64,000 bases of DNA from Escherichia coli (GTDB taxonomy: Bacteria; Pseudomonadota; Gammaproteobacteria; Enterobacterales; Enterobacteriaceae): assembly GCF_003334785.1 (NCBI RefSeq), contig NZ_QOWV01000012.1; one strand, written 5' to 3'. Within the stretch, counting starts at the first letter, position 1, and every line of letters starts with the position of its first letter. Under the pieces are notes generated by a model that saw only the letters and a list, made by a program, of their open reading frames with translations, was not told where the DNA came from and ran no database searches. This document shows positions 1 through 64,000 of the stretch, piece after piece. Both the position numbers and the translations under genes were made by a program.

Positions 1-1
1 C

Positions 2-154
2 AGCAAGCGTTACACTCAGCGCATTGAGCGACATAATCTGAATCTGAGACAACATCTGGCAAGGCTGGGACGGAAGTTACTGTCGTTCTCAAAATCGGTG
101 GAGTTGCATGACAAGGTCATCGGGCATTATCTGAACATAAAACACTATCAGTAA
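2..154 (+). CDS. 3' end of an unidentified ORF running off the left window edge (partial)
   Basis: Open frame from the window edge to TAA at 152-154; no family recognised by eye. Confidence 0.2.
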
Positions 155-878
155 GTTGGAGTCATTACCTCCTCCCGAACTCAAAGCTATCATACAGATA
201 ATTACTGGTTAACCCTATATAGGGCATTTTAAAGTGTTGTGATCTTACCCAGCAATAGTGGACACGCGGCTAAGTGAGTAAACTCTCAGTCAGAGGTGAT
301 TCACAAGACAAAACAGTTTCAACCAGTAAAAAAACGTAAACACCATTCGCATGAATTTCGTAGTTAAGATCTGAAGCTTGCAGAATGCATCGGTGTTACT
401 GCCGGAGTTCGTGAACTTAGTCTGCATGAATCACCACAGCTTTACATCTGTCGCAGTAAACAGCAAAATCAGCAAACTTACTTAATTATATCGAGTGCGA
501 TTACAATCGCTGGCGATGGTACAGTTGGTGTGGCGGTCTCAGTCCGGAACAATTTGAAAATCAGAATCTCACTTAAAACGGCATCCATTTTACAAAAGAT
601 GGCCGTCTGTGTATTTGTAATGAATACCTTCTACATGTTTAGAGTGCATAATCCACGACAAGGCGATATCCTAAAAATTAGCTAGCAGGCAACTTTGATG
701 GCATAGATAATGTTTTTAGTAAAAAAGAGTTGACTGAATATAATACAGCCTCTTCCTACATAAGAAGGAATGTGCTCACAAAAAAAACCATTAGTCTGCT
801 TCCTGTTCTTACAATAATCAGTATTATGTATTTTATTTATATAGCAAAATATGCTTGTTACACCTGTCATAATTAGGC

Positions 879-1172
879 ATGGTAAAATTATTGACTGAAC
901 CCTGGGGGAGAAAGATGCACAGTGATTATTATAATATGGTTTTTGGTGAAAAATTGGCCAATATTTTATATGAAGCTAACTCTCAATTTTTTTACGAGAG
1001 AAATGTCATAGAAGAGGCAGTCAACGCTTTATTCTGTGAGCGTGAAATAATAAACAACAAGAACATAATAAAGAAGCTGATGTTCTTTTTGTCAGATGTT
1101 AATCACACCAAGAAAGATGTTGTTCAGAGCGCACTTAATATTATCATTGACATTACATCAGGTGATATTTGA
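879..1172 (+). CDS. hypothetical protein (97 aa) in AT-rich DNA
   Basis: ORF in track; strongly AT-rich context typical of horizontally acquired DNA; no recognisable motif. Confidence 0.3.
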   Translation: MVKLLTEPWGRKMHSDYYNMVFGEKLANILYEANSQFFYERNVIEEAVNALFCEREIINNKNIIKKLMFFLSDVNHTKKDVVQSALNIIIDITSGDI

Positions 1173-1505
1173 GATTTTACATAAAAGATAATCTCTCAAG
1201 GAGTCTTATCTGAAAACGAAATATATAGTCCCTCTCGTTTTGTAATATCGATTGGCTTTGTTGAATCGGTTACGTACCCCGGAGCCGGTCATATTTTCAG
1301 GTAATACACACGCTTTCAGACATTTCGGCTTTCGTCATTTTGGTATCATGGGCATAGCTTCTGCTACCTGACCATCATAATCACGCAGCTTCAGTGAAGC
1401 AGTGACCACCTGTTTAACCCGGTGTATCGTTATGATCTTATCCAGCAATTGAACCGCCCCGGGTTTCCTGGAGAGTGTTTTATCTGTGAACTCAGGCTGC
1501 CAGAT

Positions 1506-1612
1506 CATCGTTTCCGATGGAAGCATAATAAGCTTTTTCTGCTTCTGCCGGTGGAATATGGCCCTGCCTTTCCAGCAATCGTCGATTGTTATACCAGTCC
1601 ACCCACGTGAGT
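1506..1612 (-). mobile_element. IS3-family transposase 3'-terminal remnant
   Basis: Minus-strand translation reads ...DELTTLTWVDWYNNRRLLERQGHIPPAEAEKAYYAS, a typical IS3-family OrfB C-terminus; only ~35 codons present, so a decayed fragment. Confidence 0.5.
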
Positions 1613-3195
1613 GTGGTCAGCTCATCATACTGACACGTGCATTACCCCTACCGCGATAATGCAACCGTACAATATAGGGCGTTTCCTAAACGCAGCCCTC
1701 ATCACTCCAATCCAACAAGACACAGCATTTTTGATCACGAAGAAAGACAAATAATTTCCGTAAATGTTTCCGTTGTTACAAATAACAACAGTGTTTTATA
1801 TTTCTTTGGCCTCAGGCCCGCGCATGTTGCCATTCGATGTCATTTTCCTGACTCGTTTCTTCTTTATGGTGTAGTGTGATCTTCACTTTATGGATGCTAA
1901 CAATATGAAAAGAAAAATTATTCCCGTGCTAATCGGTTGTACGCTCTCTTTCTCTGCCCTGGCGGCACAACCTACGGCTGAGCGCTATGTCGTCAGTTTT
2001 CCAGAAGGCACGCACGTGAACTATGCCGGCGCATTTGCCAGTGCATTCCCGAACGGCCTTCCGGTTGGGATAGGTTCTGGCCTGCTGTTCACCGGTAATC
2101 CGTGATCGAATCGAGCGGAATACGCAGCCCCGACAAATACGAGCCCCCTTCAGCAGATACAGGCCGGTAATACCTGAAAATCAGCCTATTACCGCCCACG
2201 CCTCCGGCACCATTCCCTTTTGATTTCGAATTCTTTGTTGTCGCTATACCGCTTAATGTTCCCGGTCCTCCGGTGCAGATAACACCGGAGTCATCGTAGC
2301 GCTGCTTCAATATTCAGGTGACATATTTCCAGACGGAAGCCGGCGCGCGATCGTAAAGTTTGTTCATTGTCAGTTCTGCCAGCCGGTTGTCAACGGCAGA
2401 GTTAAAGGCTTCCAGCTCCGCAAGGGTAAGTTTATAACGCGTGTGGGAATTCACTTTTCCCGCGTCTCCTGACGTATTACGGGCTGCCACTTACCAGGTG
2501 TCCCGCAATACAGCCTTAGTGTTCCGTTATCGGGGATCCGGACGCACCGCAACAACCGGGGAAGTATTTCTGGTTTAGAGCAGTGTCAAGAGGGATTTCT
2601 CAGCCCCTCACTCACCGGCTCAGTCTCAGGGCAGGAGCATTAATACGCTCAGTTCATGTCTTATACAGGAATGGGCACAGGGGGAGCTGGCGTGTCACTG
2701 CTGATTTTACGCATCAGCGTTCATGTATCTGCACTCTGATACATGAACGATTCACAGCGCTCTGTTACCGGAGAGATTTACTCTCTTAGCTTACTCTGGC
2801 AAATCCTTTACGTTACTCTCTGATGACTTCTTATATTTATAATACCAATCAGACAGCCTTATCCCATCGGTGATATCAGTCTCCTCCTCGCCAGGAACGG
2901 GCTGACTCACTGTAACCACCTCCGAAAACAACTCTGCAATTATCAGAACGCTAGTTTTCCCCTTGTCTCACGAAAGTCCTCCCTCCTTTATCGCGCGTGC
3001 GTGCGGAAGCATCTTTTCGCAACAACCACCCGGGATTCCGCTACGGCTCTGCCATCGCAATCCCCCCGTTTATCTCCGGACAGCCACATTCCCGATTATT
3101 TTTTACGTTTCTCCCCGGTTGTTATGCCAGTGAAGGTGGCGCGCTGTTTTCATGACCACACCGGCTGGTTTAACAACATCCGGAGGAACATTCTC

Positions 3196-3393
3196 ATGGC
3201 TACAGCCGCAGCCGGCAGTAACATGACGTTCTCACCGTCACAGAATGGTACGTCACTGGACCTGCAGGCCGGACTGGAAGCCCGTGTCCGGGAAAATATC
3301 ACCCTGGGCGTTCAGGCAGGTTATGTCCACAGCGTCAGCGGCAGCAGCGCTGAAGGCTATAACGGTCAGGCCACGCTGAATGTGACCTTCTGA
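3196..3393 (+). pseudogene. flu: antigen 43 autotransporter, C-terminal beta-barrel fragment only
   Basis: Translation ...GSNMTFSPSQNGTSLDLQAGLEARVRENITLGVQAGYVHSVSGSSAEGYNGQATLNVTF matches the extreme C-terminus of Ag43; upstream sequence in the same frame is unrelated, so the gene is truncated. Confidence 0.6.
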
Positions 3394-3507
3394 CAGAACC
3401 ATCGCCTCTCTGTGGTCCCGGTCATCATGATCGGGACCCGGACCGGCGCAACGGATATTCAACGCCACATTCGCTGGCATTAACAATAACATGATATTCA
3501 TCACGGA

Positions 3508-5049
3508 GTGACTATGTTACAGATAGTCGGCGCGCTGATCCTGCTGATCGCAGGATTTGCCATTCTTCGCCTTTTGTTCAGAGCATTAATCAGCACGGCT
3601 TCTGCGCTGGCAGGGCTCATATTGCTGTGTCTGTTCGGCCCGGCCTTACTGGCTGGCTATATCACCGAACGCATAACCCGGTTGTTCCATATTCGCTGGC
3701 TGGCAGGCGTATTTCTGACGATTGCCGGAATGATCATCAGCTTCATGTGGGGACTTGATGGTAAACATATCGCGCTGGAGGCTCACACCTTTGACTCTGT
3801 GAAATTTATTCTGACCACCGCTCTCGCCGGTGGTCTGCTGGCTGTTCCCCTGCAGATCAAAAACATTCAGCAGAACGGGATCACACCAGAAGATATCAGC
3901 AAGGAAATTAACGGGTATTACTGCTGTTTTTATACTGCCTTTTTCCTTATGGCGTGTTCTGCATGCGCACCATTGATCGCGTTACAGTACGATATTTCAC
4001 CGTCACTGATGTGGTGGGGCGGGTTGTTGTACTGGCTGGCTGCATTAGTGACGCTGCTATGGGCGGCCAGCCAAATCCAGGCGCTGAAAAAACTGACCTG
4101 TGCCATCAGCCAGACACTGGAAGAACAACCGGTGCTCAACAGTAAATCGTGGCTGACCAGTTTGCAAAACGATTACAGCCTTCCTGACTCACTGACGGAG
4201 CGCATCTGGCTGACGCTCATTTCTCAACGGATTTCCCGGGGAGAGCTGAGGGAATTTGAACTGGCAGACGGAAACTGGTTACTGAACAATGCCTGGTATG
4301 AAAGAAACATGGCAGGGTTTAACGAACAGTTGAAAGAGAACCTGTCATTCACACCTGATGAACTGAAAACGCTCTTCCGGAACCGCCTGAATTTATCACC
4401 GGAAGCGAATGACGATTTTCTCGATCGTTGCCTGGACGGCGGTGACTGGTATCCCTTTTCAGAAGGTCGCCGTTTTGTATCATTCCATCACGTGGATGAG
4501 CTTCGTGTCTGTGCCTCCTGCGGGCTGACAGAAGTACATCATGCCCCGGAAAATCATAAGCCGGATCCGGAATGGTACTGCTCCTCTCTTTGTCGCGAAA
4601 CAGAAACACTGTGTCAGGAAATTTATGAACGCCCTTACAACAGCTTTATTTCCGATGCAACGGCGAATGGTCTGATTCTCATGAAACTGCCGGAAACCTG
4701 GAGTACAAATGAGAAAATGTTTGCTTCCGGAGGGCAGGGACATGGGTTTGCCGCTGAACGGGGAAACCATATTGTCGACAGAGTCCGTCTGAAAAACGCA
4801 CGGATCCTCGGTGATAATAATGCCAGAAATGGAGCAGACAGACTGGTCAGCGGAACAGAAATCCAGACGAAATATTGTTCAACTGCAGCCCGTAGCGTCG
4901 GTGCGGCATTCGACGGACAAAACGGACAGTATCGTTACATGGGAAATAATGGCCCCATGCAACTGGAAGTCCCCCGTGATCAGTATGCCGGCGCTGTTGA
5001 AACCATGAGGAATAAGATCCGCGAAGGTAAAGTAACCGCGCTGAAATGA
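3508..5049 (+). CDS. yeeR: CP4-44-type inner membrane protein YeeR homologue (513 aa)
   Basis: Hydrophobic N-terminal half; position after a flu remnant and before yeeS/yeeT/cbeA/cbtA mirrors the CP4-44 gene order. Confidence 0.6.
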   Translation: MTMLQIVGALILLIAGFAILRLLFRALISTASALAGLILLCLFGPALLAGYITERITRLFHIRWLAGVFLTIAGMIISFMWGLDGKHIALEAHTFDSVKFILTTALAGGLLAVPLQIKNIQQNGITPEDISKEINGYYCCFYTAFFLMACSACAPLIALQYDISPSLMWWGGLLYWLAALVTLLWAASQIQALKKLTCAISQTLEEQPVLNSKSWLTSLQNDYSLPDSLTERIWLTLISQRISRGELREFELADGNWLLNNAWYERNMAGFNEQLKENLSFTPDELKTLFRNRLNLSPEANDDFLDRCLDGGDWYPFSEGRRFVSFHHVDELRVCASCGLTEVHHAPENHKPDPEWYCSSLCRETETLCQEIYERPYNSFISDATANGLILMKLPETWSTNEKMFASGGQGHGFAAERGNHIVDRVRLKNARILGDNNARNGADRLVSGTEIQTKYCSTAARSVGAAFDGQNGQYRYMGNNGPMQLEVPRDQYAGAVETMRNKIREGKVTALK

Positions 5050-5219
5050 GTCCGGAAGCTGCCGGCATTGCTGCCTGTCTGATGACGTACAGTCATCATG
5101 CCTGTCGTACGGAGTGTTATGCCATGACGGTCCATTATTACCGGCTGCGGGATTACGCCCTGCAGCATCCGGAATGCAGCGCCATTATGCGCATCATCGA
5201 CTGAATGGAGAGAAGTACA

Positions 5220-5696
5220 ATGCAACAGCTTTCCTTTCTGCCCGGAGAGATGACGCCCGGCGAGCGCAGCCTCATTCAACGGGCCCTGAAAACCCTGGAC
5301 CGCCATCTTCATGAACCCGGCGTGGCCTTCACCTCCACCCGTGCGGCACGAGAATGGCTGATTCTGAACATGGCGGGACTGGAGCGTGAAGAGTTCCGGG
5401 TGCTGTATCTGAACAACCAGAATCAGCTGATTGCCGGTGAAACCCTCTTCACCGGCACCATCAACCGCACGGAAGTCCATCCCCGTGAAGTGATTAAACG
5501 CGCCCTGTATCACAATGCCGCTGCTGTGGTGCTGGCACACAATCACCCGTCCGGTGAAGTCACACCCAGCAAGGCAGACCGCCTTATCACGGAACGTCTG
5601 GTACAGGCACTGGGCCTGGTGGATATCCGGGTGCCGGACCATCTGATAGTCGGTGGCAGCCAGGTTTTCTCCTTTGCCGAACATGGTCTGCTTTAA
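5220..5696 (+). CDS. yeeS: RadC-like JAB-domain protein (YeeS/YfjY/YkfG family)
   Basis: MQQLSFLPGEMTPGERSLIQRAL... with the HNHPSGEVTPS JAB/MPN metal motif; start taken at the internal Met matching family length. Confidence 0.7.
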   Translation: MQQLSFLPGEMTPGERSLIQRALKTLDRHLHEPGVAFTSTRAAREWLILNMAGLEREEFRVLYLNNQNQLIAGETLFTGTINRTEVHPREVIKRALYHNAAAVVLAHNHPSGEVTPSKADRLITERLVQALGLVDIRVPDHLIVGGSQVFSFAEHGLL

Positions 5697-5758
5697 CCCG
5701 TCACAACCACATCACACCTGTTTTCACTTTTATCTTCTGTCTTCAGAGGTATCCCACT

Positions 5759-5980
5759 ATGAAAATCATCACCCGTGGCGAAGCCATGCGTATTCACCGT
5801 CAGCATCCGGCATCCCGTCTTTTTCCGTTCTGTACCGGCAAATACCGCTGGCACGGCAGTGCTGAAGCGTATACCGGTCGTGAAGTGCAGGATATTCCCG
5901 GTGTGCTGGCCGTGTTTGCAGAACGCCGTAAGGACAGTTTTGGTCCGTATGTCCGGCTGATGAGCGTCACCCTGAACTGA
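5759..5980 (+). CDS. yeeT: DUF987 protein YeeT homologue (73 aa)
   Basis: 73-aa ORF MKIITRGEAMRIHRQHPASRLFPFCTGKYRWHG... in the conserved position between radC-like gene and cbeA. Confidence 0.65.
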   Translation: MKIITRGEAMRIHRQHPASRLFPFCTGKYRWHGSAEAYTGREVQDIPGVLAVFAERRKDSFGPYVRLMSVTLN

Positions 5981-6142
5981 TGTTCCGTCACCCGGAAAAC
6001 GAGTACGACTGGCTGAGCTCAGACGCCGCTGTGGATGAGGTCCTGCTCATCAACGAATACACCTTTACCGAAGCCGGTCTGCGCGCCGGCTGACCCGTCA
6101 TCGTTAAACTATCATTCACCGATTTTCTGTGAGGATTTTATC

Positions 6143-6511
6143 GTGTCAGACACACTTTCCGGGACAACGCATCCCGATGACAATGACGACCATCCCTGGT
6201 GGGGACTACCCTGCACAGTGACGCCCTGTTTCGGCGCCCGTCTGGTGCAGGAGGGTAACCGCCTGCATTACCTTGCCGACCGCGCCGGTATCAGAGGCCT
6301 GTTCAGCGATGCAGATGCGTACCACCTGGACCAGGCCTTTCCGCTGCTGATGAAACAACTGGAACTCATGCTCACCAGCGGTGAACTGAATCCCCGCCAT
6401 CAGCATACCGTCACGCTGTATGCAAAAGGTCTGACCTGCAAAGCTGACACTCTCGGTAGCGGTGGTTACGTTTATCTGGCTGTTTATCCGACGCCCGAAA
6501 CGAAAAAGTAA
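6143..6511 (+). CDS. cbeA: type IV antitoxin CbeA (YeeU family)
   Basis: GTG start; [52 protein letters not shown]... matches the YeeU/CbeA family; immediately upstream of cbtA. Confidence 0.75.
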
Positions 6512-6600
6512 ACCACCGGAATAACCTTCTGCTCCGGCCTGGTGCTTTCACCACGCCACTTTTCCATTTTTCATCTCTGCATATCAGGAAAACCTTCAGT

Positions 6601-6975
6601 ATGAAAACATTACCCGATACACACGTACGGGAGGCATCGAGCTGCCCGTCTCCCGTCACCATCTGGCAGACTCTGCTCTCCCGACTACTGGGCCAGCATT
6701 ACGGCCTTACACTGAATGACACACCGTTCGCCGATGAACGTGTGATTGAGCAGCATATTGAAGCTGGCATTTCACTGTGTGATGCGGTGAATTTTCTCGT
6801 GGAAAAATACGCGCTGGTGCGTACCGACCAGCCGGGATTCAGCACTTGTCCCCGCTCTCAGTTAATAAACAGTATTGATATCCTCCGGGCTCGCAGGGCG
6901 ACCGGCCTGATGACCCGCGACAATTACAGAACGGTAAATAACATTACCCTGGGTAAGCATCCGGAGAAACGATGA
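6601..6975 (+). CDS. cbtA: toxin CbtA (YeeV family, cytoskeleton-inhibiting)
   Basis: 124-aa [79 protein letters not shown]...; conserved antitoxin-toxin order. Confidence 0.75.
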
Positions 6976-7460
6976 AACTTTCCCTGATGCTGGAAGCCGA
7001 CAGAATTAATGTGCAGGCACTGAACATGGGGCGAATTGTCGTTGACGTCGATGGTGTTAATCTCACTGAACTGATTAACAAGGTCGCTGAAAACGGTTAT
7101 TCACTCCGCGTGGTGGAGGAATCCGACCAACAGTCAACCTGCACACTACCACCGTTTGCAACCCTTGCCGGCATACGCTGCAGTACCGCACATATCACGG
7201 AAAAGGATAACGCCTGGCTGTACTCGCTGTCGCATCAGACCAGTGACGTTGGTGAATCAGAATGGATTCATTTCACAGGTAGCGGATATCTGTTACGTAC
7301 CGATGCGTGGTCATATCCGGTTCTGCGGCTTAAACGCCTGGGGCTGTCAAAAACGTTCCGTCGTCTGGTTATCACACTTACCCGACGTTATGGCGTCAGT
7401 CTCATTCATCTGGATGCCAGCGCTGAATGCCTGCCGGGTTTACCCACTTTCAACTGGTAA
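6972..7460 (+). CDS. yeeW: CP4-like prophage protein (YeeW-like), function unknown
   Basis: ATGA start/stop overlap with cbtA as in the CP4-44 cbtA-yeeW arrangement; 162 aa. Confidence 0.5.
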
Positions 7461-7471
7461 CCAGGAACAAC

Positions 7472-7669
7472 ATGAAATCATTAACCACGGAAACCGCACT
7501 GGATATTCTGATTGCGTGGCTGCAGGACAATATCGACTGCGAATCGGGAATTATCTTTGACAACAATGAGGATAAAACGGATTCAGCAGCACTGTTGCCC
7601 TGTATCGAACAGGCCAGAGAGGATATCCGTACCCTGCGCCAACTGCAGCTTCAGCACCAGAACCGGTGA
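7472..7669 (+). CDS. small hypothetical prophage protein (65 aa)
   Basis: ORF following yeeW-like gene; internal Met chosen; no motif recognised. Confidence 0.3.
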   Translation: MKSLTTETALDILIAWLQDNIDCESGIIFDNNEDKTDSAALLPCIEQAREDIRTLRQLQLQHQNR

Positions 7670-8386
7670 GTCTTACTCACCAGACTTCATTCCACTGACG
7701 CCAGCCTGAACAGGGCTGGCATTTTCATTTATCTGCAAAAAGGAATATCGATTATGTCTGATATCACAGCCTACCGTCCGGAAGTGGTCAACGAGAATAC
7801 GGACGTTATCTGCTCAACCAGCATCCGCCGCATTCTGGCTGTACGAAAGAGTTCACTGCTGCAAATCGACACAATTATCCGGCATCAAGTGAGCGATATC
7901 AGTTAACAGATATAGATGGAGAAGATGCTTTTATCCGGATTGGTTCTATCGCGATGGTGCGAGTACTACTTGATGCAATGAAGCCTGTCGAGGAAGATGA
8001 CGAGTAACAGAGCTCGGTATCTCAATCAGGAGCTGATTGTCCTGGTTCGATGCCGAAAACCAGTGATTTTTCGTGTTGGTATCTGTGTTGGTATAAGATG
8101 ATATTGTTTATTATTAACAATTTTAAATCATGAGGTTAAGTCACATGTTTGAGTCCGGCCTTCGCACCTTCGCACCTTCGCACCATCGGAACATCAATAG
8201 ACATCAACGGACGTTTTTTTATGACTGAAATCCGCGCCACACAAGGCTTTTCGCTATTTTTCGCTCAACCTAAGTCAACCTACATCAACTTACTGATGTG
8301 GATACAGCTACAGCTGCGGCTATACCCCGATTCGATAATGTTTGTACCCACACAAAACCCTTGAAAGGCTACAAGGCTGAAATTGT

Positions 8387-8605
8387 CTAAACCATAGAGA
8401 TGATTTTTATGATCCAGTCTTTCTCTTGTTGAGATAGTTCCAGTTTGCTCACTCGTGTTAAGAAGGTATTGATCACCTGAACATCCGAATTGGTGAGCCT
8501 ATTTAATAGAGCGGGTGGTATACCTTTACTAACAATCGCTTTGCGGTGACTTTCGTAGTTTTTATTACTCATTGTTGATCCTAAAAAATCATTGTATGGC
8601 GGCAT
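8387..8605 (-). CDS. hypothetical protein (72 aa); possibly C-terminal part of a frameshifted gene
   Basis: ORF in track directly downstream of the 8629..8871 ORF on the same strand, different frame. Confidence 0.3.
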   Translation of the reverse strand: MPPYNDFLGSTMSNKNYESHRKAIVSKGIPPALLNRLTNSDVQVINTFLTRVSKLELSQQEKDWIIKIISMV

Positions 8606-8628
8606 TGATCGTTTCCAGCAACCTTTAC

Positions 8629-8871
8629 TTACTCACTTCGAACTGCATCCTCGTAGACTGTTCCACTACAATAATCGAAAAGGCGCGGATGTCCATTCAG
8701 GTATCCCGCTAATACGTATAGCAATAACAATGGCTTATGCGGCGCGCGCTGTTCACCCTTGTGCCAGATTTTTATATTGGCAATTGCCTGCTGTAGCGAT
8801 TTACTGGAAGCTATTGATATCCCTAGCAGTGAAATAATTGCGATCATGCTCGCAAATTTTCTGCTGTTCAA
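8629..8871 (-). CDS. hypothetical protein (80 aa) with RAPHKPLLLLYVLAGYLNGHPRLFDY motif; possibly N-terminal part of a frameshifted gene
   Basis: ORF in track, divergent from the HNH gene; followed 24 bp downstream by a second ORF in another frame. Confidence 0.3.
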   Translation of the reverse strand: MNSRKFASMIAIISLLGISIASSKSLQQAIANIKIWHKGEQRAPHKPLLLLYVLAGYLNGHPRLFDYCSGTVYEDAVRSE

Positions 8872-8950
8872 GCCTGCAAGTGAAGATATATTACCTTGAT
8901 CTCATTTGTTTTTTTGCTGCCTGTTCTGAGAACGTATAAGGACATTCTCC

Positions 8951-9601
8951 ATGAATAAACTCCCTGATCATCTTCCGCGGCGGTATATCATCGAAGCTAT
9001 CCATTTATGGGATGCGGGAGAAACTCATCAGTTCCAGCCTGCGCGGTTGTATGAGATTGAATATCATGGCCGACGTTACCCCTCGAAGGCGATTGCTGGC
9101 ATCGCAGCGACATTGATGACGGGGACGCAATTTACCCCTGCGGATTTCACCGGCGGAATAAAATCTAAATGTGTCAAGCTACTCATAGAGCAGGGATTTC
9201 ATATTCATCTGGATAAAGCCGCTGCGGCTCCCATAGCCGACGTTCTGTTCCCGGATGAGTTGCCGTCGCAGGAGACATACCTTGAAGGTGCGGCGATAAA
9301 GGTGACAGTAAACCGCTATGAACGCGATAAAAAGGCCCGAGATAAAGCGGTCGAACATCATGGATGCCAGTGCAACGTATGCGGTGTTGATCTGGTGAAG
9401 ATCTATGGTGATATCGCTGAAGGCTTTATCCATGTGCATCACCTGGTGCCGCTGTCAGCCATTAAAGAGGATTACCAGCTGGATCCAGTTAATGATTTGC
9501 TGCCTGTGTACCCTAATTGCCATGCGATGTTGCACCGACGCAAACCACCGTTTACGCCGGAGCAGTTAAAAGCGCTGATGGATGCGAATAAATCAAATTA
9601 A
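8951..9601 (+). CDS. HNH endonuclease with an extra N-terminal domain (type IV restriction-like)
   Basis: C-terminal HHGCQCNVCG...FIHVHHLVPLS...NDLLPVYPNCHAMLHRR is a canonical HNH (C-x2-C, HH, N, C-x2-H) motif; about 120 aa of unrelated N-terminal sequence; AAGGA Shine-Dalgarno upstream of ATG. Confidence 0.7.
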   Translation: MNKLPDHLPRRYIIEAIHLWDAGETHQFQPARLYEIEYHGRRYPSKAIAGIAATLMTGTQFTPADFTGGIKSKCVKLLIEQGFHIHLDKAAAAPIADVLFPDELPSQETYLEGAAIKVTVNRYERDKKARDKAVEHHGCQCNVCGVDLVKIYGDIAEGFIHVHHLVPLSAIKEDYQLDPVNDLLPVYPNCHAMLHRRKPPFTPEQLKALMDANKSN

Positions 9602-15628: not shown

Positions 15629-15675
15629 TTTAACTCATTGATAATAAAGTTAAAAAACAAATAAATACAAGACAA

Positions 15676-15989
15676 TTGGGGCCATTTTGACTCATAGAGG
15701 AAAGCATCGCGCACAAACTTTTTCAGTTTATTTGTTGGCTTAATATTCTATTGTTATCTTTATTTATAGATTTTTATATTGCATGAGGTGGTTTTTGGAG
15801 AGAAGAATGAGGAAGATGCGTCGAGCCACAGAAACGTTAGCTTTACATATAGCGGAGGTGATGTGAAATTAATTTACAAGAGAAATAATTTACATATCAA
15901 ACAGTTAGATGCTTTTTGTCGTTTTTTAATATTTTTATGCTTGAGAAAAAATACGTAACTTATTTATGATATGGACAGTTTGGCCCCAA
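15676..15989. promoter_or_regulatory. fimS: fimS invertible phase-variation switch (314 bp) bounded by 9-bp inverted repeats, captured in the fimA-ON orientation
   Basis: TTGGGGCCA at 15676-15684 and TGGCCCCAA at 15981-15989; promoter-like TTGAGA / TATGATA inside the element pointing toward fimA. Confidence 0.85.
15944..15971 (+). promoter_or_regulatory. fimA sigma70 promoter inside fimS (-35 TTGAGA, -10 TATGATA)
   Basis: Hexamers read directly from sequence, about 18 bp apart, immediately inside the right inverted repeat and oriented toward fimA. Confidence 0.55.
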
Positions 15990-16108
15990 ATGTTTCATCT
16001 TTTAGGGGAAAACTGTGCAGTGTTGGCAGTCAAACTCGTTGACAAAACAAAGTGTACAGAACGACTGCCCATGTCGATTTAGAAATAGTTTTTTTAAAGG
16101 AAAGCAGC

Positions 16109-47085: not shown

Positions 47086-47427
47086 TCAGGCAACTTTCTG
47101 TTTACCGGCAATCACCCCAATAAATTCCTGCACCTGCTTTTGTTTACGCGCCGACAGCTTGCACACCCTGCGCAGCGACTGCATCAGTTCGCTCTCTTCG
47201 GCGGCGGGTGGTTGAGCGGTGAGGACGATGCAGCCTTCCATCACTTTGACATCTACCGCCGTGCCGGTGGCAAAACCGGCGGCTTCCAGCCACTGACCTT
47301 TCAGGGTGATGGCGGGAATATGCGCGTGATCCGGGTAGCGGCTCGCATAACCGACGGTGACATGACGGTTATTTGCCGGAGAGACTTCTGCTTCGAACGG
47401 TTGTGCAATAGAATACGTGTCAGTCAT
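47086..47427 (-). CDS. symE: SOS-induced toxin-like endoribonuclease SymE
   Basis: [74 protein letters not shown]...; 113 aa from the internal Met. Confidence 0.85.
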
Positions 47428-47497
47428 AACTGCTATTCTCCGATAATAGTGATTGTGATGAGCGGTGCGGGTGTGTTGGCGCACATCCGCACCGCGC
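47420..47497 (+). ncRNA. symR: cis-antisense sRNA SymR (position inferred, boundaries approximate)
   Basis: In K-12 SymR is encoded opposite the symE start/5'UTR; here an inverted repeat gcggtgcgg...ccgcaccgc at 47462-47496 lies in the corresponding position. Confidence 0.4.
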
Positions 47498-47503
47498 TAA
47501 ATA

Positions 47504-63835: not shown

Positions 63836-64000
<165 letters not shown>

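Follow-up and report, generated by a model that had tools for sequence, protein, structure and literature searches.

Genomic Context of the Repeat

The stretch of DNA analysed here, called the window in the following, comprises 64,000 nucleotides of the Escherichia coli chromosome (NCBI RefSeq assembly GCF_003334785.1, contig NZ_QOWV01000012.1). It opens with the right-hand part of a composite genomic island at the tRNA-Leu gene leuX, which contains IS remnants, a Hha-family gene, yeeR, RadC/JAB, a YeeU-CbtA toxin-antitoxin pair, DUF5983, DUF957, as well as DUF4942 and HTH pseudogenes. The island ends at a short array of three tandem octamers, the subject of this report. To the right of the repeat a restriction-endonuclease pseudogene, an HNH endonuclease and nanS/nanM/nanC are found, and next to these lies the fim operon in the E. 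coli genomes O26 11368, 06_3235, and 03_3013, which the window matches over the stretch right of the repeat. The coordinates of the features are collected in Table 1.

Table 1. Features at the right end of the leuX island and further features of the window.
Feature	Position	Strand	Basis or remark
Right-hand part of the composite genomic island at leuX	1-8150	+	identity to NZ_CP051001.1
Island-side (P) arm of the attachment site, ending ...CACATGTTT	8100-8150	+	P4 attP has ...TTTTGATGTTT directly before the core
Left part of the attachment core, GAGTCCGGCCTTCG	8151-8164	+	equals leuX bases 66-79 and the P4 attP core
Three perfect TTCGCACC units	8161-8184	+	direct reading, TRF, simulation
Terminal GCACCA, closing the core after the last unit	8180-8185	+	corresponds to the discriminator base and CCA at the leuX 3' end
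ATCGGAAC, start of the right flank, degenerate extra unit	8185-8192	+	sequence reading
Orphan integrase-proximal (P') arm of a lost element with P4-family integrase	8185-8349	+	alignment to relatives
Decayed terminator-like hairpin and seven-T run (GACATCAACGGACG TTTTTTT)	8200-8220	+	hairpin intact in relatives
10-bp TCAAC-containing direct repeats (TCAACCTAAG TCAACCTACA TCAACTTAC)	8265-8293	+	TRF period 10, 2.9 copies
Segment between fimE and fimA, 322 bp	15672-15993		inverted versus O26:H11 11368
SymR antitoxin RNA (symR)	47422-47498		RF01809, 89.5 bits
52-bp tandem repeat, about 2 copies	63838-63952		TRF

A scan for tRNA genes detected none in the window; leuX lies outside and was placed via identical genomes. 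Positions 1-9000 of the window are 100% identical to E. coli O157:H16 98-3133 (NZ_CP051001.1 1478377-1487376), in which leuX (1457230-1457314) is followed by an integrase gene (1457405-1459315), the fec operon and the island genes. Islands carrying fec at leuX have been listed previously (PMC7545054). The sequence corresponding to the array-bearing attachment core described below is found in 98-3133 at 1486527, and the distance from the leuX 3' end to this core amounts to 29,213 bp. A further complete core at 1464609 separates a first element of 7.3 kb from the remainder, and the order leuX, internal core and array-bearing core constitutes a clean three-core tandem arrangement. In O26:H11 11368, approximately 59.6 kb separate the core from leuX with its integrase, and an internal core is found in between here too. 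Relative to this genome the first 5 kb of the window are rearranged, and 98-3133 therefore served as the reference. The island sequence at positions 1-5040 of the window represents a shortened and rearranged version of the 11368 leuX island and lacks, for example, the Ag43 gene and several copies of IS66.

The leuX-adjacent element of 98-3133 encodes an unusually long site-specific integrase of 636 amino acids (L084:11406-13316, corresponding to the integrase coordinates in NZ_CP051001.1 given above). The attR of this element has 25 bases in common with leuX (GGTTCGAGTCC...CCA), in which GG is kept, and the enzyme belongs to a different integrase class, for which crossover in the T-loop is probable. 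Three features of the window outside the island were observed along the way. The segment between fimE and fimA is inverted compared to O26:H11 11368 at 99.4% identity and, as read from this comparison, is the fimS invertible switch, which stands in the opposite phase in the two genomes. SymR is the sole Rfam family above threshold in the window. The 52-bp tandem repeat is rich in GCCGGATG/CCGGCC and resembles REP/BIME elements.

The Array Lies in the leuX/P4 Attachment Core

A sequence-only reading of this DNA had reported a tandem octamer in three copies at positions 8157-8180. The repeat itself is real, but these coordinates are 2-4 bases off; the 26-base string ccttcgcaccttcgcaccttcgcacc quoted there was found by sequence lookup at 8159-8184 with a perfect period of 8. 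TRF calls the array at 8159-8188 with period 8, 3.8 copies of CCTTCGCA in its register, 95% matches and a score of 53, which makes it the top-scoring short-period array of the 64-kb window. Starting at 8159, each base equals the base eight positions further on for 18 consecutive positions, the maximum in the window among the periods 4 to 12. In 300 windows simulated with a first-order Markov model a run of 18 matches was never reached, the simulated maximum being 14, so that the perfect head-to-tail copies known from VNTRs exceed what is expected by chance. Beyond the three tandem copies the octamer TTCGCACC occurs in the 64 kb at four scattered places. A chance repeat is ruled out by these simulations and an assembly artefact by the recurrence of the array in hundreds of independent complete genomes; nothing was found to support either, and together they retain practically no probability. 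The sequence-only reading had taken the repeat as too short for a CRISPR, and the locus is not one: in place of repeats of approximately 24-48 bp alternating with unique spacers of similar length, it consists of contiguous units of 8 bp with zero spacers.

That reading placed the repeat in island intergenic DNA, which is imprecise, since it overlooked what the sequence is: at the right boundary of the island the leuX/P4 attachment core is present with its 3' part expanded, and this expansion is the repeat. The leuX gene, verified at at least 99% identity in 5,417 records, is 85 nt long and ends GGTTCGAGTCCGGCCTTCGGCACCA; its 3' end, on which the alignment and the assignment of the terminal GCACCA are based, reads ...CTTCGGCACCA. 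The core annotated in the attP of phage P4 (NC_001609 4078-4097) is GAGTCCGGCCTTCGGCACCA, a sequence cited as the P4 attachment site (PMC6177240). In the window, the sequence before and within the array reads GAGTCCGGCC TTCGCACC TTCGCACC TTCGCACC A. By comparison with leuX and P4, GAGTCCGGCC(TTCGCACC)3A represents the final 20 bases of leuX, and thereby the P4 att core, minus one G and with the last 8 bases triplicated. The core without this G, hereafter the one-G core, consists of GAGTCCGGCCTTCG-CACCA, i.e., a 19-base copy of the leuX 3' end that is one G short, and each octamer unit corresponds to its last bases, (CC)TTCG-CACC. The match to the left part of the core, GAGTCCGGCCTTCG, is a single occurrence in the window. 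Upstream of the core the similarity continues, with ...GATGTTT preceding the core in P4 attP and ...CATGTTT in the window.

The arrangement in related genomes agrees with an attachment site. In NZ_CP051001.1, both leuX and the core are located on the + strand, hence the core is identical with the tRNA 3' end in the orientation of the gene, and an intact tRNA gene with an adjacent integrase gene is present at the opposite end of the insert. Moreover, a BLAST search with positions 8080-8300 against 5,426 complete E. coli genomes places the repeat on a synteny breakpoint. Many genomes, including Nissle, match the window up to position 8168 and then diverge, while others match only from 8145-8175 onward. 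In addition, six different left contexts precede the same array with its right flank. Taken together, these sequence comparisons place the array within the attachment core at the right end of the leuX island, be it called attR or a junction core.

The Right Flank Is an Orphan Arm of a Lost Element

From position 8185 to approximately 8349, the sequence aligns end to end with the intergenic region between leuX and intB of K-12, and likewise with the sequence that precedes the integrase in an ETEC element and in several IMG/VR elements. The aligned arms share a spacer, a terminator hairpin and its T-run, a ATGCCTGAAATCC box, direct repeats with TCAAC and a CCGATTCGATAATGCTTGTAC box, and the window shows the corresponding series of spacer, decayed terminator, ATGACTGAAATCC box, TCAAC repeats and CCGATTCGATAATGTTTGTAC box. 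At the position of the decayed hairpin the relatives have AGACGTCGACGGACGTC-T6 or GACCTCAACTGAGGTC-T7; the copy in the window falls below the criteria of the terminator scan. The TCAAC motifs are conserved in the K-12 and ETEC arms, where they occupy the same columns of the alignment, and the 10-bp repeats containing them are probably arm-type integrase binding sites of the orphan arm, candidates whose function is derived from their sequence and place. In the loci of the relatives, tblastn finds the start of the integrase approximately 205-220 nt past the core, and past the core of the window it finds no integrase gene. As the flank is homologous to sequence upstream of integrases while no integrase follows in the window, we regard it as the orphan arm of a lost element. 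Judging by these alignments, the stretch from 8185 to approximately 8349 is therefore not native chromosome.

Copy Number Varies Among E. coli Genomes

The sequence-only reading had proposed the repeat as a candidate slipped-strand site and a comparison of repeat number among related genomes as the check, with an invariant copy number as the outcome that would speak against it. Copy number was derived using a query of eight units plus 156 nt of the right flank, for which the start of the match follows query_from = 63 - 8n; this rule was confirmed on six fetched loci, and every fetched allele agreed with it. The copy number turned out not to be invariant. With the right flank being the same, the number of units ranges from 2 to 7 among E. 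coli genomes, and this supports the slipped-strand proposal. Altogether, 875 E. coli records contain the right flank of the array, 699 of them with n of at least 3. The best 60 matches comprise one record with n = 7, six with n = 6 and 13 with n = 5, the latter inferred from the search coordinates. For n = 2 to 4 the numbers were estimated from ranked BLAST listings: n = 4 occurs in at least 40 records among the matches listed (estimated at approximately 55-68), n = 3 in approximately 610-625 (the 699 records less those with higher alleles; 42 of 60 rows in an evenly spaced sample) and n = 2 in approximately 30 (two of the 60 rows in this sample). A diverged haplotype with approximately 84% identity accounts for four further rows in the evenly spaced sample. 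Alleles of 2, 3, 4, 6, and 7 units were read directly in fetched genomes.

The alleles differ by whole units on conserved flanks, as is characteristic for VNTRs, with n ranging from 2 to 7. On an identical 156-nt right-flank haplotype n = 2, 3, 4, 5, and 6 are all present, and a second haplotype that is approximately 98.5% identical holds most of the alleles with n = 5-7. Copy number also changes between near-clonal isolates, as seen in the one pair compared: strain 06_3235 carries n = 4 and strain 03_3013 n = 3, while their flanks are colinear for 20 kb to either side, with 6 SNPs and without any further indel in 40,147 bp. The different unit numbers in this pair show a recent gain or loss of a unit within a clone, in accordance with the slipped-strand idea.

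In 100,044 species-representative genomes, a scan for arrays of at least 2 units behind GGCC gave no enterobacterial match; it returned three unrelated matches in metagenome-assembled genomes (MAGs) and one mis-binned E. coli-like contig. As far as this sample of species representatives shows, the octamer expansion would thus be specific to E. coli. The contig concerned (L020; CAKRJY010000038.1), 2.8 kb long and assigned to a Lachnospiraceae MAG from a Hadza gut metagenome, contains an E. coli island end with a 4-unit array and is almost certainly a mis-binned E. coli contig.

Origin of the Array

Arrays of two or more units are confined to the ATCGGAAC flank, both among the IMG/VR cores and among the fetched E. 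coli junctions. A single unit is present at the E. coli junctions with other flanks, i.e., in Nissle, in ETEC 2011EL-1370-2 and at the internal junction of O26 11368, and 30 of the 32 junction-core matches in IMG/VR have a single unit as well. In the single-unit state, the core followed by the ATCGGAAC flank reads CCTTCGCA CCATCGGA in the TRF register, which is a direct repeat with 6 of 8 positions identical; with flanks of the K-12 or Nissle type, the next octamer matches at 2-3 of 8 positions. Single-unit copies with the ATCGGAAC flank are found on the IMG/VR contigs L028, L035, L045, and L073, and these junctions look like the ancestral state.

Two genomes of the diverged haplotype provide further traces of the process. 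The junction of ECC-1470 (L013) reads TTCGCCCC ATCGCACC ATCGGAAC, where ATCGCACC is the hybrid unit expected from slippage between the two proto-units and represents a second, independent duplication. Compared with ECC-1470, OkiPb01713 (L014) has lost exactly the 8 bases ATCGGAAC between CATC microhomologies. As a separate observation, the HNH endonuclease beside the ATCGGAAC loss is truncated (one strain of the diverged haplotype, L013/L014). The restriction of the arrays to one flank, the proto-repeat, the hybrid unit and the exact loss of ATCGGAAC fit replication slippage or unequal exchange.

The array with its right flank is joined to at least six left contexts, and the elements to the left differ. 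These contexts are the arm of the window type, the arm of strain T2, the AAA-ATPase island (strain 124611), a P4-like arm (L036), the right-hand end of the element with the 636-aa integrase (2017.02.03CC) and, in DY612, the endpoint of a deletion within the core. In 2017.17.03CC, a seventh genome, the core is degenerate. The occurrence of the same array and flank behind at least six left contexts indicates that the array is old and that left-hand elements were turned over without removing it.

From these observations, the following sequence of events can be proposed. With the core adjoining a flank that starts with TCGGAAC, CCTTCGCA and CCATCGGA form an accidental 6/8 direct repeat. Replication slippage or unequal exchange on this proto-repeat may then have led to a rare first duplication of the 8-base unit, and once two or more perfect units were present, gains and losses of single units would have become frequent. 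Position and origin of the array, its polymorphism, the recent change in a clone, the confinement to one flank and the lack of a coding or promoter context are observed, and the mechanism and the neutrality are deduced from sequence patterns. We consider it likely that the array is a VNTR which arose in the attachment core and which changes neutrally, driven by slippage. The integrase may have a share in the gain and loss of units, as the units contain GCACC, where the P4-type crossover may occur.

One-G Cores and the Point of Crossover

The missing G is not a peculiarity of the window. Among the non-tRNA cores behind P4-type arms in IMG/VR, 32 have one G and two have GG. In P4-like prophage contigs with both ends available, attL is the intact tRNA gene with GG and attR is without at least one G in ten out of ten cases. 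The loci for this observation are the window at 8151-8185, L006:4039, L084:18610 and L021-L083. One and the same right flank, AGTTACTAAATTCC, adjoins a one-G core in O26 11368, where a P4-like arm precedes the core, and a GG core in 98-3133, where the element with the 636-aa integrase precedes it, and the K-12-type arm follows GG when located beside leuX and one G when a P4-like prophage is situated in front of it. The state of the core, G or GG, tracks the element to its left. This suggests that a one-G core is brought along by the P4-family elements themselves and that their crossover lies 3' of GG, within GCACCA, and the tRNA "fragment" in attR would then not be displaced tRNA sequence. P4 itself is contrary to the one-G pattern, as its attP core has GG. 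At one E. coli junction a non-P4 arm is joined to a one-G array, which would fit only if the integrase of that element crosses over further 5'.

Alternative Explanations for the Array

Steps of 8 bases would shift a reading frame, and a mechanical TTG-start ORF of 71 aa (8149-8364), the sole one spanning the repeat, could be taken to indicate a phase-variation repeat which switches a neighbouring gene by frameshift or promoter spacing. However, none of the RefSeq genomes inspected has an annotated CDS across the repeat, and the coding reading was rejected on this ground together with the frame-shifting 8-base steps. Scans detected neither a promoter-like site on the + strand nor a terminator adjoining the repeat, and so the repeat lies neither in a CDS nor between the promoter elements of an expressed gene, as is the case in contingency loci. 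Both neighbouring features are pseudogene remnants, and the flank is an orphan attachment arm without its integrase, leaving phase variation extremely improbable. As single-stranded DNA, positions 8140-8225 form no stable structure (-2.3 kcal/mol, z = +2.2), and the whole-window Rfam scan has nothing at the repeat. An effect on recombination itself is conceivable, as every unit is a copy of the 3' part of the core, GCACC included, the junctions suggest that P4-type crossover occurs 3' of the GG position, and the array persists in hundreds of genomes behind different elements; an altered attR core could either block alignment or cleavage by the integrase, which would lock the island, or offer alternative crossover registers. 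The first unit nevertheless leaves an intact one-unit core-left plus GCACC, hence the normal register stays available, copy number drifts freely between 2 and 7 without a preferred value save the mode at 3, and left-hand elements were evidently exchanged despite the array. We therefore consider functional units of this kind unlikely.

Tyrosine recombinases typically cut with a stagger of 6-8 bp, into which the unit of 8 bp falls, and the array is situated at the crossover region of the core. It could accordingly be seen as an integration or excision scar, in which each unit stands for one cycle whose staggered cuts, 8 bases apart, were filled and rejoined. Tyrosine recombination is, however, conservative and leaves no duplication behind, and to our knowledge E. 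coli is without efficient end joining. The near-clonal pair with three and four units has colinear 20-kb flanks and no sign of gain or loss of an element, arrays are restricted to one right flank though 30 other IMG/VR junctions underwent integration too, and slippage on microhomology is in line with the hybrid unit as well as with the loss of 8 bases outside the core. The scar is for these reasons a very improbable origin, and the same low probability applies to its corollary that the array would record the history of element turnover at leuX. Hardly more probable is an array that would be a by-product of P4-family integrase action, with mis-registered or aborted recombination changing n; if this were true, the 8-bp unit would be the region handled by the enzyme and n would report the history of leuX-element activity. 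A slippage-driven, neutral VNTR in the attachment core is the reading we prefer.

Relation to Known Systems and Significance

With the P4 att core in leuX, a 20-bp sequence common to attP and attB, the window shares 14 + 5 identical bases, the leuX orientation and a P-arm ending ATGTTT, but one of the two Gs is missing and the final 8 bases occur in triplicate (2-7 copies in other strains). As in the direct repeats of leuX islands, the core is located at the island end opposite to the tRNA gene and the integrase; unlike at these island ends, the right side is the orphan integrase-proximal arm of another element and not native chromosome. The use of tDNA fragments as markers of island ends and the recognition of tandem island arrays are the principle of Islander (PMC4383910). 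The locus conforms to it with a 3' tRNA-gene fragment in tRNA orientation at the end and with serial cores as a tandem array, whereas it deviates in that the fragment behind P4-type left arms seems to be borne by the element rather than being a displaced chromosomal end, and in that the tRNA fragment of the window has turned into a VNTR. MLVA typing of E. coli uses VNTR loci such as the O157 VNTRs (PMC3777172), which resemble the octamer array in that short perfect units stand head to tail, alleles change in steps and very closely related strains differ; the octamer array is shorter, with 2-7 copies of 8 bp, and its origin from an att core is unusual. With the contingency loci of Neisseria and Haemophilus it shares the presumed slippage mechanism, but no gene or promoter is coupled to the octamer repeat. 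Neither the exact repeat string nor a VNTR at leuX was found in the open literature searched, in which only the P4 core is cited, and no published MLVA locus with this sequence was met there. The attachment site and the VNTR behaviour are thus known kinds, while this locus appears to be undescribed in the literature searched.

As a repeat, the array matters little. It marks precisely where leuX islands end on the right. The array junction is present in approximately 16% of the complete E. coli genomes (870/5,426) and is a possible cheap typing marker. The context of the array is of more use. The junction cores constitute sequence-level evidence on the place of the P4-type crossover and on the partner which supplies the tRNA "fragment" of attR, and the source of this fragment affects the calling of island boundaries by those tools which assume displaced chromosomal DNA.
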